53,942 bases of DNA from Bacteroidales bacterium (GTDB taxonomy: Bacteria; Bacteroidota; Bacteroidia; Bacteroidales; ML635J-15). The stretch is from the NCBI GenBank assembly GCA_031284905.1, contig JAITXI010000171.1, forward strand, positions 1 through 53,942. The letters run 5' to 3'. Position 1 is the first letter of the stretch. Every line of letters starts with the position of its first letter. Below the pieces are notes generated by a model. It did no database searches and had not been told where the DNA came from. It was given only the letters and a program-made list of their open reading frames with translations. Position numbers and translations under genes: made by a program. Below are positions 499 through 28,716 of the stretch, in pieces.

Positions 499-1680
499 AT
501 GCGTTCACTTTGTTTTTATTTTCAAGTACATCAACCTTTTAGATTAAGAAGATACAAATTTTTCGATATCGGACACGAACATTATTATTATAATGATTTT
601 GAAAACAAGTCAATAATGCGAAAAGTTGCAAATAAATGCTATCTGCCTACTAATCAAGTATTTTTTGATTTGATAAAAAAATATGGTTCAGATGTGAAAA
701 TTTCATATTCTATTTCAGGTGTTGCTATAGACCAATTTGAAATGTATGCTCCTGATGTTCTCGAAAGTTTTCAAAGACTCGTTGATACAGGAAATGTTGA
801 AATCCTTGATGAAACTTATGCTCATTCACTTTCTGCTCTGAAAAATAAAGAAGAATTTTTCCGTCAAGTAAAAATGCACCGAAATAAAGTTAAAACGCTG
901 TTCGGCGTTGAACCAAAAGTTTTTAGAAATACAGAATTGATTTATTCTGATAAAGTCGGAGAAATGGTTGCAGAACTTGGTTATAAAGGGATTTTAGCTG
1001 AGGGAGCAAAACATGTTTTAGGTTGGAGAAGTCCAAATTATGTTTATTGTAATGCAATAAAACCAAAACTTAAAGTTTTGCTGAAAAATTTTAAATTATC
1101 TGATGATATTGCTTTCCGTTTTTCAAATAGAGGTTGGGAAGAATGGCCACTTACAACTGAAAAATTTGTTTCTTGGCTAAACGAACTTGATTCAAAAGAA
1201 CAAACCGTAAATCTTTTTATGGATTATGAAACTTTTGGCGAACATCAATGGGCAGAAACAGGAATTTTTGAATTTTTAAAGGCACTCCCAAATGCAATTT
1301 ATAAAAATTCTGATTTTAGATTTGTAACTCCGTCAGAATTAATTGAAAATTTCCCTGCAGTTGGCGAAATACATGTTCCTTATCCAATGTCGTGGGCAGA
1401 TGAAGAAAGAGATTTAACAGCTTGGCTTGGTAACGAACTTCAAGACGAAGCATTTAATAATCTCTATAATCTCTACGAAAAAATAAAAGAAAAAAATGAT
1501 CCCCAAATATGGAAAGATTGGCTTTATCTACAAACTAGCGACCACTTTTATTATATGTGTACAAAATGGTTTTCTGACGGTGATGTGCATAAATATTTTA
1601 ATCCTTATGATTCTCCTTATGAAGCATTTGTGAATTTTATGAATATTTTTAGTGATTTCCTTATTCGATTGGAAAAATAA
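499..1680 (+). CDS. Glycoside hydrolase family 57 (alpha-amylase-like)
   Basis: Motifs FQVHQP, ETYAHSL, FRNTEL, FMDYETFGEH, SWAD. Confidence 0.93.
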   Translation: MRSLCFYFQVHQPFRLRRYKFFDIGHEHYYYNDFENKSIMRKVANKCYLPTNQVFFDLIKKYGSDVKISYSISGVAIDQFEMYAPDVLESFQRLVDTGNVEILDETYAHSLSALKNKEEFFRQVKMHRNKVKTLFGVEPKVFRNTELIYSDKVGEMVAELGYKGILAEGAKHVLGWRSPNYVYCNAIKPKLKVLLKNFKLSDDIAFRFSNRGWEEWPLTTEKFVSWLNELDSKEQTVNLFMDYETFGEHQWAETGIFEFLKALPNAIYKNSDFRFVTPSELIENFPAVGEIHVPYPMSWADEERDLTAWLGNELQDEAFNNLYNLYEKIKEKNDPQIWKDWLYLQTSDHFYYMCTKWFSDGDVHKYFNPYDSPYEAFVNFMNIFSDFLIRLEK

Positions 1681-1689
1681 AAAATTTAA

Positions 1690-1915
1690 CCCAACTTGAA
1701 CAAAATTTCCAAGAAAACAAATAAAAAAGGCAAATTTTTATAAAGTTTAAAAGTGTAGTCGATTGATTGTAAAGAGTTTGTGTGTTTGGAGTTTCAAAAA
1801 ATGGCTTTGTAAACCTTAAATTTTCAAAATATATCAAAATGAATGTTAACTTTGTAGCGTGTTTGTAAAGAAAATTGATAAATCAAATAAATATGTAGCA
1901 GAAATTTATAATGAG
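1690..1915 (+). mobile_element. IS1634-like left end / non-autonomous remnant
   Basis: AAAATTTAACCCAACTTGA at 1681-1699 is identical to 25824-25842; the following ~60 nt resemble 53765-53826 and the reverse complement of 26181-26220; right boundary uncertain. Confidence 0.55.
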
Positions 1916-1943
1916 TTTAACTATTAAAAAAATCCTATAAATT

Positions 1944-2708
1944 ATGATGTTAGACTTTTCTAAATACAAAAAAAAATTTACTGAATACGCAAATTCCTTT
2001 CTAAATAAAGATAAAAAACACGATGAAGATTTTATTTTAAAAATTATTCATAGTAATAATGTTAAGAAAAATGCTGAATTTATTGCTATTTCAAATAATT
2101 TTTCTTACGAAGATTTTTTTATTGCACAAATTTGCGGACAATTTCACGATGTTGGCAGATTCTTGCAATATCATGAATATCAAACATTTAAAGATACAAA
2201 AACGATAAAGCATGGAGAATTAGGAGTGAAAATTATAAAAGAAAATCGTTTTTTTGAGGATTTAGATATTTCTTTGCAAGAAATTATTTACACTGCAATC
2301 TATAATCATGGTTTATATTCAATAGAAAAATATCAAACAGACAAACAACTTTTTTTTTCAAAATTAACTCGTGATGCTGATAAAATAGACATTTTTAGAC
2401 TTGTTTCCGAATATTATAATAAAACCGAAAACAGAAACATTGCTCTCGAATATAATTTGGAAGATATTCCGGAAATTTCAAAAAATGTTTTTAATTCGTT
2501 CAAAGACAAAGAATTAATTGAAAAATCCGAATTAAAAACATTAAATGATTTTAAACTTATGCAACTTTCATGGATATATGATATAAACTTTGAATGTTCC
2601 AGAAAGTTAATTATTGAAAAAGAATACCTTCAATCTATTTTGCTAAGTATATCTGATATTTATATAAAAAATATTATCAAACAAATGATTACGAATTTAA
2701 CAATTTAA
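1944..2708 (+). CDS. HD-domain phosphohydrolase
   Basis: Motifs KIIH, FHDVGRF, HGELG, NHG, RDADKIDI. Confidence 0.85.
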   Translation: MMLDFSKYKKKFTEYANSFLNKDKKHDEDFILKIIHSNNVKKNAEFIAISNNFSYEDFFIAQICGQFHDVGRFLQYHEYQTFKDTKTIKHGELGVKIIKENRFFEDLDISLQEIIYTAIYNHGLYSIEKYQTDKQLFFSKLTRDADKIDIFRLVSEYYNKTENRNIALEYNLEDIPEISKNVFNSFKDKELIEKSELKTLNDFKLMQLSWIYDINFECSRKLIIEKEYLQSILLSISDIYIKNIIKQMITNLTI

Positions 2709-2726
2709 TATAAATTTCTATGCTGT

Positions 2727-2800
2727 TAGAACCAAGGTAAAAGGGCGAACGGTGAACGGACGAAAGGAAAATTTAGATTTTCAATTTTAGAGTGAAAATC
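2727..2800. repeat. Degenerate 7-nt-period repeat array
   Basis: TAGAACCAAG, then GGTAAAA GGGCGAA CGGTGAA CGGACGA and TTAGATT TTCAATT TTAGAGT, between convergent genes. Confidence 0.55.
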
Positions 2801-2803
2801 GTT

Positions 2804-4114
2804 TTATCTTCGTTTGTTCGCTTTTTTGTTATTTGTAATCATTTTCATCATTTGTTTGGTTTGGTCGAATTGCTTTAAAAGACGGTTTACATCTGCAATT
2901 TCTGTTCCGCTACCCATTGCAATTCTTTTTCGACGTGTTCCGTTTATAATTTCGGGATTTTCTCTTTCAAGAGAAGACATCGAATAAATTATTGCTTCAA
3001 TACTTTTGAACGTATTATCATCAAAATCCATGTTTTTTATTGCTTTGCCCAAACCAGGAATCATTCCTGCCAATTCTTTGAAATTTCCCATCTTTTTTAT
3101 TTGGTTTATCTGTGAAAGGAAATCATTAAAATCGAATTTGTTTTTAGCTATTTTTTTCTGAAGTTTTCGTGCTTCTTCTTCATCATATTGTTCTTGTGCT
3201 TTTTCAACCAAAGAAACTATATCTCCCATTCCAAGAATACGGTCTGCCATACGTTCCGGATGGAAAACATCTATGGCATCCATTTTCTCTCCTGTACCAA
3301 CAAATTTTATCGGCTTATTTACAACTGCTCGAATCGAAATCGCTGCTCCACCTCTTGTATCTCCGTCTAATTTTGTGAGAATCACTCCGCTAAAATCCAA
3401 ACGATTGTTAAATTCTTTTGCTGTATTTACGGCATCTTGTCCGGTCATCGAATCTACCACAAATAAAATTTCTTGCGGATTAATGGCGCTTTTGATGTTT
3501 TCGATTTCGTCCATCATTTCTGAATCTACAGCCAAACGACCTGCTGTATCTATTATTACTAAATCATGCCCATATTCTTTTGCATATTTTACTGCATTTT
3601 GTGCAATCTTAATCGGATTTTTATTCTCGTTTTCCGAATAAACTTTAACATCAATTTGTTCTCCTAAAACTTTTAATTGTTCTATAGCTGCCGGACGATA
3701 TATATCACAAGACACCAATAATGGATTTTTCCCTTTTTTTGTTTTTAGCATATTTGCTAATTTTCCCGAAAAAGTTGTTTTACCGGAACCTTGAAGACCA
3801 GACATCAAAATTATTGCAGGACTTCCTTTTATATTTATTTCTGATGCTGTTCCGCCCATTAATTTTGATAATTCATCATGGACAATTTTTATCATCAATT
3901 GCCCTGGTTTTAACGATTTTATTACATTTTGCCCAATTGATTCCTCTTTTACTTTTGTGATAAATTCTTTAGCTGTGTTATAATTGACATCGGCATCTAA
4001 TAAAGCACGACGTACTTCTTTTAGAGTTTCTGCAATGTTTACTTCATTAATCTTTCCTTCTCCTCTTAATAATTTTAAAGATTTTTCAAGTCTTTCTGAT
4101 AAATTTTCAAACAT
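2804..4114 (-). CDS. ffh: Signal recognition particle protein Ffh
   Basis: MFENLSERL start; GLQGSGKTT, DTAGR, TKLDGDTRGG, RILGMGD, M domain. Confidence 0.98.
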   Translation of the reverse strand: MFENLSERLEKSLKLLRGEGKINEVNIAETLKEVRRALLDADVNYNTAKEFITKVKEESIGQNVIKSLKPGQLMIKIVHDELSKLMGGTASEINIKGSPAIILMSGLQGSGKTTFSGKLANMLKTKKGKNPLLVSCDIYRPAAIEQLKVLGEQIDVKVYSENENKNPIKIAQNAVKYAKEYGHDLVIIDTAGRLAVDSEMMDEIENIKSAINPQEILFVVDSMTGQDAVNTAKEFNNRLDFSGVILTKLDGDTRGGAAISIRAVVNKPIKFVGTGEKMDAIDVFHPERMADRILGMGDIVSLVEKAQEQYDEEEARKLQKKIAKNKFDFNDFLSQINQIKKMGNFKELAGMIPGLGKAIKNMDFDDNTFKSIEAIIYSMSSLERENPEIINGTRRKRIAMGSGTEIADVNRLLKQFDQTKQMMKMITNNKKANKRR

Positions 4115-25832: not shown

Positions 25833-26225
25833 CCCAACTTGACCACCAACAAAGCGTAATCTGTTTGCATAACGTAGTTTGCGTTTTGCAGAAATCAATT
25901 ATGGAGTACTACGAATTTTTTTGTCATATTTTGTGAATTTTGTAATCGTATAGGTTGTCGCGTAGATATTTAAATTTTATTCCGTGGCAATCCCAACATC
26001 CATTATTGCTACCGGTTTGGTTGGGAATAAAGTAGCAGGTTTCTTTTTCTCTAAATCACCTACTAATTTCTTTAAATGTATTCTTTTCGCTAATATTTCC
26101 TGCATAAAATCAACTGCTATAAACAAAACCTTTATTTAATTATCAAATCTACAAATTGTTAATAATAAACAGTTTGCGTTTTTAGACTTTGTGAAAATTT
26201 GCCTTTTTTATTTGCTTTTCACAAA
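25833..26225 (-). mobile_element. Internally deleted IS1634-family remnant with transposase pseudogene fragments
   Basis: Minus-strand fragments FYAGNISEKNTF, KPVAIMDVGIATE*NL, YLRDNLYDY and KKFVVLHN*; terminus GTCAAGTTGGG; left-end-like sequence at 26181-26220 shared with 1712-1752. Confidence 0.72.
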
Positions 26226-26228
26226 TTA

Positions 26229-27053
26229 TTAAATCGCTTTTAAACCTAAAATTTTTCTAGCTTCAGTCGGTGTTGCAATTTCTCTACCAAGTTCTTTAGC
26301 CATTCTAACAACTTTTGCAACTAATTCGCTGTTTGATTTTGCTAAAACTCCTTTTGATAGATATACATTATCTTCAAATCCTACTCTTACATTTCCGCCA
26401 TCAATAATTGCAGCCATTGCTAACGGAAATTCAAATTTTCCTACTCCGGCTACTGTATAAGTTGCGTCAGCAGGAATACTTTCGCGAAGAAAAACAAAAT
26501 CTCGCAAATCGCCTGTTATGCCTCCATTTACTCCCATAACAAAATCAAAGTGCATTGGAGTTGAAATATATCCTTTCTTTTGCAAACGTAGTGCCATATC
26601 AATCATCGACTTATCAAAAACTTCCAGTTCCGGTTTGATTCCTAATTTTATCATTCTGTCTCCGAAATATTTGATTGTATTCTCGGTATTTTCAAAAATT
26701 TCATCACCACCAAAGTTACAAGTTCCACAATCTAAAGTAGCCATTTCAGGCAATAATTCGGTTGGCTGTAATCTTTCGTCATTCGACATCCCAACGGCTC
26801 CTCCTGTTGAAGGTTGAATTATTACATCAGGAATTACTTTTTTTATAGCTTCAATTATTTCATTGAATCTGGCTTTGTCCTGCGTTGGAGTACCGTCATC
26901 ATAACGAACATGAAGATGAATTATACTTGCACCGGCATCATAAGCTGATTTTGCTTCACGAACCATTTCTTCTACTGTGTAAGGAACTGCCGGATTGTGT
27001 TCTTTTAAAACTTCTGCACCACAAATTGCAGCTGTTATTATTAATTTTTCCAT
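26229..27053 (-). CDS. kce: 3-keto-5-aminohexanoate cleavage enzyme
   Basis: MEKLIITAAICGAE, IIHLHVR, STGGA, EMATLDCG, VRVGFEDN; ATG at 27053 (the longer ORF merely runs into the inverted repeat). Confidence 0.95.
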   Translation of the reverse strand: MEKLIITAAICGAEVLKEHNPAVPYTVEEMVREAKSAYDAGASIIHLHVRYDDGTPTQDKARFNEIIEAIKKVIPDVIIQPSTGGAVGMSNDERLQPTELLPEMATLDCGTCNFGGDEIFENTENTIKYFGDRMIKLGIKPELEVFDKSMIDMALRLQKKGYISTPMHFDFVMGVNGGITGDLRDFVFLRESIPADATYTVAGVGKFEFPLAMAAIIDGGNVRVGFEDNVYLSKGVLAKSNSELVAKVVRMAKELGREIATPTEARKILGLKAI

Positions 27054-27074
27054 ATTTAAATTACTTATTTTTTT

Positions 27075-27107
27075 TAGAACCAAGAGCCGAGATATTAGAA
27101 CCAAGAC
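27075..27107. repeat. Left arm of the 33-bp inverted repeat flanking the four-helix-bundle gene
   Basis: TAGAACCAAGAGCCGAGATATTAGAACCAAGAC; 32/33 match to the reverse complement of 27433-27465. Confidence 0.95.
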
Positions 27108-27127
27108 CCTTAATTCCGGTTAATATA

Positions 27128-27425
27128 CTATAAATTATTTTTAAAACTAATTGTCATTTTTTGAATTTCAGCAAGTGTCTTTTGAAATAGAGAATGTTTC
27201 GCTTCATCAACATATTCTAAATTTTTAACAATAAATAAGTTCGGTCTCCAATTCAAAAGAAGAACCAATATAAATTTCAAGAAACCGAGCAAAATCTTTA
27301 TTGCTATACTTTGCTGAACCTTCAAAAATATTAGATGGAATAGAAACAGCAGATAGTTTTATCTGTGATTTTAATCCAAATCTTTCGCTATCAGGAAAAG
27401 TTTTAGTAAAATTATGCATATTCAT
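27128..27425 (-). pseudogene. Four-helix-bundle protein (23S rRNA IVP / Avd-like), frameshifted with helix 1 deleted
   Basis: Frame A: MHNF|TKTFPDSERFGLKSQIKLSAVSIPSNIFEG...FARFLEI..GSSFELETEL; frame B continues IVKNLEYVDE...EIQKMTISFKNNL*. Confidence 0.88.
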
Positions 27426-27432
27426 TTAATTT

Positions 27433-27465
27433 GTCTTGGTTCTAATATTTCGGCTCTTGGTTCTA
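27433..27465. repeat. Right arm of the 33-bp inverted repeat; includes the kal stop codon
   Basis: GTCTTGGTTCTAATATTTCGGCTCTTGGTTCTA; the terminal CTA is the kal TAG. Confidence 0.95.
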
Positions 27466-27846
27466 CTTCCTCTGACATTTTTTAGGTACAACACAAGTTC
27501 CTATAGCTCTGCAAACTACAATTGGTTCATCAAGGAAATCTGCTGCTGACTCCGAAATATCTGTCCTTGGGCAAATCACTTTTCTTGCTTCAAAAACCAT
27601 TTTTCTGGAAGAATTTCCAACGTTAATAATTTCACCTTCTGCTTCAATATAATCGCCTGCAAAAACAGGATTTAAAAATTCTATTTTTTCATAACCGGCA
27701 AACAAACCTTCATCACCGTCATGAATTATTAATAATTCTGTTGCTACATCACCAAATAATTGAAGCATTCTTGCTCCATCAACTAAATTTCCACCATAAT
27801 GAGCATCGTGTGCACTCATTCTCAATCGTATAAGAGATTTTTCCAT
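27463..27846 (-). CDS. kal: 3-aminobutyryl-CoA ammonia-lyase (hotdog fold)
   Basis: [40 protein letters not shown]; clustered with kce. Confidence 0.93.
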
Positions 27847-27861
27847 TTTATTTATTATTTT

Positions 27862-28509
27862 TTATAATTTTACGATGAAATCAACAAAGATAGCAGGAGT
27901 TTTAACCATTTCAGGTGCTATATCTCCGGTTTTCACAACTTTTTTAACTTCCACAATAACAGTATCTGCAGCCATTGCCATTAACGGGTTAAAATTTGTA
28001 CAAGTACCTTTATAAACTAAATTTCCGTTTTCATCGGCTGTATCTGCATAGATGATTGCTAAATCAGCTTTTAAAGGTTTTTCTAAAAGATATTTTTTAC
28101 CTTCAGATTCAATAATTTCTTTACCATTTTCAACAATAGTACCTAATCCGGTTGGTGTTAAAAAACCGCCTAAACCATTTCCACCACATCTTATTCTTTC
28201 TGCAAGAGTACCTTGTGGAACAAATTCAATTTCAACTTCCTTATTGTTAAATTGTTCTATTGTTGAAGGATTTGTACCTATATGAGAACAAATAATTTTC
28301 TTAACTTTCTTATTTACAATAAGCTGTCCAACACCTTTATTAACAAATGCTGTATCATTACAAATTATTGTTAAGTCTTTTATATCTGTTTTTAATAATT
28401 CTGCAATTATCATCGTAGCACTTCCATTTCCCAAAAATCCTCCAAACATAATTGTTGTTCCACTTTTTATTTTAGATATAGCTTCATTAATATTAATAAA
28501 TTTATTCAT
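27862..28509 (-). CDS. atoD: Acetoacetate/butyrate CoA-transferase, alpha subunit
   Basis: MFGGFLG, SHIGTNP, PQGTLAERIRCGG.GLGGFLTPTG, NFNPLMAMAA. Confidence 0.9.
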   Translation of the reverse strand: MNKFININEAISKIKSGTTIMFGGFLGNGSATMIIAELLKTDIKDLTIICNDTAFVNKGVGQLIVNKKVKKIICSHIGTNPSTIEQFNNKEVEIEFVPQGTLAERIRCGGNGLGGFLTPTGLGTIVENGKEIIESEGKKYLLEKPLKADLAIIYADTADENGNLVYKGTCTNFNPLMAMAADTVIVEVKKVVKTGDIAPEMVKTPAIFVDFIVKL

Positions 28510-28593
28510 AAATAATTATTTCATGCAAATTTAACAAAATTTTCTTATTATTCAAAATTTTTTTAGATACAAATAAAAAACTCTACGCTGTAA

Positions 28594-28716
28594 CCCACTT
28601 GAGCAAAATCGCCAAAAAATGCAAAAAGGACATTTATTACCTTTTAGAAGGCTATTTTATCCTTTTTTATGCAAAGTATTTTGAGTTTTTATAGTGGTGA
28701 TTTTGCTCAATGAGAG
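28594..28716. mobile_element. MITE with IS1634-like termini
   Basis: TTGAGCAAAATCGCCA (28599-28614) matches the reverse complement of 28695-28710 at 15/16; begins TAACCCACTTGA, like the copies at 1687 and 25830. Confidence 0.65.

Follow-up and report, generated by a model that had tools for sequence, protein, structure and literature searches.

What lies between kal and kce, two adjacent genes of a lysine-fermentation operon in the 2.75-Mb genome of a Bacteroidales bacterium? The window analysed here is the whole stretch of 53,942 nucleotides of contig JAITXI010000171.1 (assembly GCA_031284905.1). All genes around the junction are on its minus strand, including a CoA-transferase subunit gene upstream of kal, and the kal stop and the kce ATG are 409 nt apart. 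This gap in an otherwise tight operon is explained by a cassette of 391 nt at positions 27075-27465, which holds a decayed four-helix-bundle gene of the PF05635/TIGR02436 family. We consider it likely that the cassette is a decayed copy of an intervening sequence (IVS)-type element, in which a four-helix-bundle gene (IVP, Avd-like) sits within inverted arms of ~7-nt units and the stem formed by the arms would be cut by RNase III. Its parts, in mRNA order, are the following.

27433..27465, minus strand: 5' arm of the cassette (mRNA sense), an inverted repeat (32/33), unique in the genome, with 7/14/21 periodicity
27234..27419, minus strand: remnant of the four-helix-bundle gene, ATG at 27417-27419 (MHNF...), helix 1 lost, helices 2-3 intact
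27128..27223, minus strand: C-terminal remnant of the same gene in another frame, stop at 27128-27130, open reading frame (ORF) 27128-27325
27075..27107, minus strand: 3' arm of the cassette (mRNA sense), pairing with the 5' arm over 16 bp, one A.C mismatch and 16 bp

Arms, enclosed gene and insertion site

The original prediction had described the arms as a 33-bp inverted repeat built of heptamers, and both points held. The two arms of 33 nt were 97% complementary (32/33), with a separation of 325 nt, and by our own arithmetic (32 matches, 1 mismatch) the pair would score 61 on the flank-repeat scale used below. A genome-wide search that allowed up to 3 mismatches matched the arm sequence at these two sites and nowhere else; the reversed control gave 0 matches. 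The self-match fraction of the arm was 0.54 at lag 7, 0.58 at lag 14 and 0.92 at lag 21, against 0.12-0.38 at all other lags from 2 to 20, and direct-repeat detection gave a unit of 21 nt, three diverged heptamers long, of which the arm holds ~1.6 copies. The arms were not reported by Tandem Repeats Finder, for which the units are too diverged.

The enclosed ORF at 27225-27425 matched PF05635 (E 2.2e-20, 73.3 bits, cut-off 33.8) over profile positions 16-78 of 106 and TIGR02436 with an E of 3.3e-19, and 3 stops were counted inside the PF05635 match of the cassette. DNA alignment with the cassettes of two relatives, L073 and L060, indicated a 57-nt deletion that removes helix 1 and keeps the start MHNF. 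The reading frame also shifts by a net +1 relative to L073, the closest intact relative, somewhere from cassette nt 232 to 243: by tblastn, L073 residues 24-81 aligned to cassette nt 59-232 in frame 2, and residues 90-115 to nt 243-335 in frame 3. The decay first read from the letters, a helix-1 deletion and a +1 frameshift, was thus recovered in both its parts. The closest intact cassette protein had the PDB relatives 2gsc (E 8.8e-19) and 2rld (E 1.8e-05); both entries contain five chains.

The arms and the gene seem to travel together. Over its full length and with both arms, the window cassette could be aligned with L073 and with L060. These two belong to two other bacterial groups (other orders) and have different host operons, L073 at an aldehyde dehydrogenase/class-III aminotransferase junction and L060 between a saccharopine-dehydrogenase-like gene and a decarboxylase. 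Identity in the 5' arm was 24/33 to L073 and 22/33 to L060, and in the 3' arm 21/33 to each; the interiors of the window cassette and L073 agreed at 212/323.

Empty sites were found in relatives, and for these the host genes and the remaining spacer have to be described.

27463..27846, minus strand: kal, 3-aminobutyryl-CoA ammonia lyase, 127 aa, the upstream host gene (NF052388)
27054..27074, minus strand: A-rich 21-nt spacer from the 3' arm to the kce ATG, with TAA in two frames and no stop in the kal frame
26229..27053, minus strand: kce, 3-keto-5-aminohexanoate cleavage enzyme, 274 aa, the downstream host gene (NF052387)

The kal product matched NF052388 with 193.9 bits (cut-off 160; profile positions 2-120 on residues 3-121), and the kce product matched NF052387 with 448 bits (cut-off 382) and PF05853 with an E of 1.8e-104. 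Among 19 loci from other genomes, kal was directly upstream of kce in 11, with spacers of 2-36 nt, its own stop codons and no cassette. The genus-wide search matched the arms in 0 of 38 other genomes, while both flanks abutted on one contig in 12 of the 38, and in these 12 genomes the flank homology broke at window position 27073/74 and resumed at 27467, which are the outer arm ends. No transposase ORF was found inside the cassette by the ORF list or the Pfam scan, and together with the empty sites this bears out the view of a transposase-free inserted cassette. These comparisons show that the cassette arrived at the kal-kce junction of this lineage as a single unit together with its arms, within 1-2 nt of the former kal stop.

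The stop of the 127-aa kal ORF, TAG at 27463-27465, is the opening triplet of the 5' arm in mRNA sense, just as had been predicted, so kal now depends on the arm's TAG to terminate; of the three frames, only that of kal is closed by the arm here. In relatives, kal had 1-4 extra codons past the equivalent of K127. The cassette had further been placed precisely at the kal stop, and its removal had been expected to leave an ordinary spacer. The A-rich 21 nt and the stop supplied by the arm agree with this, but when exactly 27075-27465 (391 nt) was deleted, no kal-frame stop was left and Kal read in frame into Kce. Deletion of 390 nt gave ...QRKKKNK* and deletion of 392 nt gave ...QRKKK*, with TAA restored 3-5 codons on. 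Because removal of 390 or 392 nt, and not of 391 nt, restores the kal stop, the insertion point is known only to 1-2 nt, or the A-run slipped by one base after insertion.

Several side observations were made on these host genes. In 8 of the 19 loci from other genomes (L008, L009, L010, L015, L017, L018, L020 and L023, same genus), kce was preceded not by kal but by a class-III-aminotransferase-like ORF of ~420 aa that ends ...AYRH(T/S)D(E/D/K)DL...; therefore the order of the lysine-fermentation genes varies within the genus. In genome G023, kal was on a different contig. A fused KAL/KCE family (NF052389) exists in NCBIfam, and Kal and Kce both matched it below its cut-off; the two genes were separate in all relatives examined.

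Flanking repeats across the PF05635 family

Through weak DNA matches between the cassette interior and relatives, four PF05635 genes were reached, all with flanking inverted ~7-nt arrays and each with its own unit sequence. We therefore analysed a family sample, the best 80 of 593 PF05635 relatives in species-representative genomes, found with a 3-sequence alignment. These 80 loci were mostly from Bacteroidota, with further hosts in Fibrobacteres, KSB1, Planctomycetota, Clostridia, Verrucomicrobiota, Elusimicrobiota, Paceibacterota, Desulfobacteraceae and Anaerolineales. In the repeat test, 300 nt upstream of each gene was locally aligned with the reverse complement of 300 nt downstream, and 138 intervals shifted by 1100 nt served as controls (95th percentile 24, maximum 28). 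The median score was 34 for the real loci and 19 for the controls; 58 of the 79 testable loci were above the control 95th percentile and 47 of 79 above the control maximum. In fixed 90-nt flanks, the best period was 7 or 14 in 91/160 flanks vs 21/276 controls, and period 8 was best in 21/160 vs 12/276.

PF05635/TIGR02436 "four helix bundle protein" genes are common; Bacteroides thetaiotaomicron, for example, matched PF05635 in a control set. For an unselected census, every PF05635 match in three genomes was taken (9, 15 and 10 matches), of which 30 loci were returned of 34; 13/30 scored above 24 and 11/30 above 28. From these sequence comparisons, flanking heptamer inverted repeats appear to be common in the PF05635 family and not universal. 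The expectation that other family members would be flanked by such repeats was therefore confirmed across phyla, with an exception in the genome of the window itself that is given below. This family-wide architecture is a more interesting result than the single locus: a vague PF05635 annotation becomes a defined cassette, running from stop to start between co-oriented genes, and present or absent among close relatives.

The anatomy of the cassettes was counted in the 58 loci with a repeat score >24. The outer arm ends were a median of 468 nt apart; inside the cassette, the 5' arm preceded the IVP start codon by a median of 28.5 nt and the 3' arm followed the IVP stop codon at a median of 9.5 nt. 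The polarity of the arms was fixed, with G>C in the 5' arm at 52/58 loci, and TAG occurred in the 5' arm at 41/58 loci vs 10/58 for the 3' arm. Neighbours were on the same strand upstream in 49/54, downstream in 45/51 and on both sides in 40/58. At 45 of 49 loci the 5' arm started at -15 to +35 nt from the upstream stop, and at 17/49 it overlapped the end of the upstream ORF, as in the window. The downstream ATG was often within a few nt past the 3' arm, and the 12 nt past the 3' arms contained 44% A and 20% T. The host genes of these repeat-flanked relatives were ordinary metabolic genes.

Arms from different elements were only 64-73% identical and diverged about as fast as the gene, while complementarity within an element was 85-97%. 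The pattern indicates that either pairing is selected for or the two arms evolve in concert. Arm sequence varied by lineage and the 7-nt build was kept. When loci were grouped into arm-unit classes, protein identity was 0.509 within and 0.453 between classes, and 0 of 2000 label shuffles reached this difference, which shows co-inheritance at most, since the classes were set after seeing the arms and related hosts share labels. A second case of presence and absence was L128, whose cassette was present in 5 and absent with adjacent flanks in 6 of 30 relatives searched.

Some loci deserve mention in their own right. The heptamer arms of L128 (query positions 543-583 and 973-1020) had short 83-90% matches elsewhere in G056 and in seven related genomes, which could be further same-arm cassettes or solo arrays. 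In three genera (L081, L083 and L088) a cassette with related arms of the TTAGA/TGAGA type lies between an enoyl-CoA hydratase family gene and a thiolase gene, and this shared junction could be due to old vertical descent or to an insertion hot spot. At L028 (G039:C587, ~1212-1680), ~130 nt of TGGATTA/TGGGATTA units stand directly upstream of a PF05635 gene (830-1195, minus strand) and are followed at once by ~330 nt of complementary units; both arms of this giant hairpin array are on one side of the gene, not around it. We also considered a "three-frame stop" role of the arms and rejected it: 5' arms closed 2-3 frames at 38/58 loci vs 30/58 for sense-read 3' arms, which is too weak in AT-rich DNA.

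Proposed mechanism and alternative explanations

How an intact cassette may work can be pieced together from the family-wide anatomy and from analogy with rRNA IVSs. Intact cassettes would be transcribed by host read-through, because the median 28.5 nt from arm to ATG are too few to hold a promoter and the cassettes are co-oriented with the genes of host operons. At this locus the arms would form a 33-bp stem in the transcript with the gene in the loop. The RNA fold of 27050-27490 gave -114.3 kcal/mol with a z of -8.06, 0 of 100 shuffles were as stable, and the predicted outer stem consisted of the two arms (16 bp, one mismatch, 16 bp), which agrees with the earlier suggestion of a long stem folding out of the operon RNA. 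RNase III, whose gene is present in this genome, may then cut the stem as in an rRNA IVS; the cut would free the cassette RNA and leave kal and kce as separately translatable pieces. Transcription should continue into kce, because there is no U-tract after the stem, and in this copy only the stem and the stop codon would still act, because the gene is dead. If the cassette model holds, RNase III ends should map to the stem, the cassette should depend on transcription by the host, and its protein should bind its own arms.

An intrinsic terminator was considered and ruled out. In the mRNA, seven A and no U-tract come after the 3' arm, the post-arm DNA of relatives is A-rich as well, and a terminator scan found no terminator-like site at the arms. 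Rfam gave no match in 26000-28600 at E up to 1.

A number of results weigh against the preferred explanation. At the locus, kal does not regain a stop when the cassette is removed exactly from arm to arm, which leaves the cassette's boundaries or history incompletely understood. No target-site duplication was visible at the cassette ends, no second copy of the arms was found in the genome, and the exact 27-nt arm pattern gave 0 matches in the metagenome contig collection. The only other PF05635 gene of this genome (contig C229, L002 1468-1854, 128 aa, intact, the protein 22% identical to the cassette subfamily) was flanked only by weak AT-rich repeat pairs, and no recent activity is therefore seen here. 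At the level of the family, the 58/79 overstates the whole, its 80 loci being those most similar to the query, and only 13/30 genes passed the repeat test in the unselected census. The arm mismatches of the 58 loci were 44 G.U and 52 A.C in sense RNA; because there is no sense-strand G.U excess, complementarity may be kept at the DNA level.

The alternative that survives best is that the stem is now a host feature, a hairpin kept after the death of the gene that sets the stability or processing of the kal/kce transcript. Repetitive extragenic palindromic (REP) hairpins in E. coli operons set the relative stability or processing of transcript parts in this way. In its favour, the arms are 32/33 paired while the ORF has a 57-nt deletion and a frame change, and arms that are 64-73% identical between elements are yet 85-97% complementary within them; independent drift predicts ~8 mismatches where 1 was seen (binomial P ~1e-3, assuming common descent and equal rates). 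However, DNA-level concerted evolution of the arms gives the same pattern, there is no G.U excess, and 11 relatives do with spacers of 2-36 nt and no hairpin. The original prediction that the RNA stem was kept after the gene died could not be upheld from this one copy, in which 1 mismatch per 66 arm bases and three indels per 325 interior bases are too few events to separate the rates. We regard a host function of the stem as unlikely, though it deserves more weight than the remaining alternatives.

Bacteroidales invertons, too, are segments of a few hundred bp between inverted repeats, and the arms might be recombination sites at which a site-specific recombinase flips the cassette as a phase switch of the operon. 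Against this, the orientation is fixed across loci: the family gene was co-oriented with its upstream neighbour in 49/54 and its downstream neighbour in 45/51 cases, and the G-rich arm was on the 5' side of the gene in 52/58 loci. In the contigs of the likely source run the cassette had one orientation and no strand-changing joint, which is weak evidence; the contigs of three DNA runs showed no joint and no empty allele, which decides neither way. Judged by orientation, an inverton is very unlikely.

A further candidate is the remnant of a diversity-generating retroelement (DGR), with the four-helix-bundle gene as its Avd accessory gene. In the accessible part of PMC10053308, PF05635 is the Pfam family matching Avd and is the one most often found near DGR reverse transcriptases. 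Against this candidate, the only two RVT_1 matches of this genome are on contig C124, not on C120, the contig of the window, the 391-nt cassette is bounded on both sides by lysine-fermentation genes, and the 58 repeat-flanked relatives lie between ordinary metabolic genes, which makes such an origin highly improbable. The two RVT_1 matches on C124 stand side by side at 1488-3516, in open frames of 737 and 331 aa.

That the cassette is ancestral at the junction and was lost in relatives, or is an assembly artefact, is just as improbable: the only run with the stretch, X1, is probably the source of the assembly and gives no independent confirmation, but a separate contig assembly of X1 spans the whole stretch with 0 differences, homologous cassettes occur in other assemblies, and 12 genus genomes with abutting flanks, their own kal stop and a short spacer would need many precise losses.

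The decayed IVS-type cassette thus remains the explanation that we prefer for 27075-27465. A wider proposal may be made from it, which we put forward tentatively and with somewhat more doubt than belief: IVP cassettes may be widespread, unrecognised selfish elements of operon junctions, of which the rRNA IVS would be a special case. Their arms, made of ~7-nt units with stops, would end the upstream gene in any frame of insertion, the RNase III stem would excise the cassette's mRNA from the host transcript and keep both neighbours expressible, the arms would explain part of the excess of tandem heptamers between prokaryotic genes, and the Avd-like protein would move the unit, possibly via an RNA intermediate.

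Comparison with known systems

Small units with inverted-repeat bounds are familiar from miniature inverted-repeat transposable elements (MITEs) and from REPtrons, in which a RAYT gene is flanked by inverted REP sequences. Small size, inverted-repeat bounds and presence/absence polymorphism are shared with the cassette, and the decayed copy resembles a non-autonomous derivative. The cassette differs in that it has no transposase or HUH nuclease and no target-site duplication and is single-copy in the genome. A MITE or insertion sequence was accordingly rejected as a candidate: inverted repeats are present, but there is no duplication, only one locus, and no transposase ORF inside.

Tandem heptamers are likewise known between genes, the cyanobacterial short tandemly repeated repetitive (STRR) repeats being intergenic tandem heptamer repeats. 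In the accessible part of 10.1101/309039, tandem heptamers are the most abundant intergenic periodic repeat in prokaryotes, with no known function. The accessible part of PMC4679880 describes TAACTGA repeats in Beggiatoaceae, cyanobacteria and some Bacteroidetes; in the forward direction these put stops in all three frames, and they sit at ORF ends beside downstream starts. The main texts of both sources contain 0 occurrences of "four helix" and "23S", and that of PMC4679880 contains 0 occurrences of "S23" and "intervening". The cassette arms share with these repeats the 7-nt units, the intergenic position beside start codons and the overlap with upstream ORF ends. The repeats are described as direct arrays, in contrast to the paired inverted arrays around a gene, and cassettes may offer a concrete origin for some intergenic tandem heptamers.

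With the Avd of DGRs the cassette gene shares the four-helix-bundle fold family. The difference is that inverted heptamer arrays, which the DGR design is not known to include, enclose the cassette gene, and that it has no reverse transcriptase nearby; nor was a template or variable repeat noted near it, with no search aimed at such repeats.

An ORF-bearing 23S rRNA IVS is known from Coxiella, and another is reportedly that of Leptospira, described by Ralph and McClelland in 1993. The accessible part of PMC4990558 presents the Coxiella IVS as a 428-nt selfish element with a 28-bp terminal-repeat stem containing one mismatch and a bulge, and with two to three tandem heptamers and a degenerate one ahead of the S23p ORF. 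According to the same portion, RNase III cuts within the stem and the S23p ORF is under reductive evolution; older proposals cited there regard IVSs as transposition remnants or as mobile elements whose ORF serves mobility. In candidate phyla radiation (CPR) bacteria, several insertion sites of the 16S and 23S genes carry IVP ORFs in a scattered pattern, as stated in the accessible part of 10.1101/2024.02.27.582315.

The original prediction of an undescribed class of element has therefore to be divided. The design is that of the ORF-bearing 23S rRNA IVS (PMC4990558, as far as its accessible part goes), while the operon form was not found described: the literature search turned up no account of PF05635 cassettes that lie in protein-coding operons and have inverted arms of heptamers, with subscription journals and supplements largely outside its range. 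Cassette and rRNA IVS share the PF05635 family, a similar size (391 nt here after the loss of 57 nt, and a median of 468 nt in relatives), a stem of ~30 bp from terminal repeats with a mismatch, 5' tandem heptamers, an ORF that decays while the RNA part persists, a sporadic distribution and a suspected selfish or mobile nature. They differ in three respects. The cassette lies between kal and kce in a protein-coding operon and not inside a 23S or 16S rRNA gene (helix 25 or 45 in the 23S case); the upstream gene takes its stop codon from the arm; and RNase III excision, which is reported for the IVS, is a prediction for the cassette. The element of the window is thus an IVS-type cassette in an mRNA context and not an rRNA IVS, and the puzzle of the ORF-bearing rRNA IVS is now tied to protein-coding operons.

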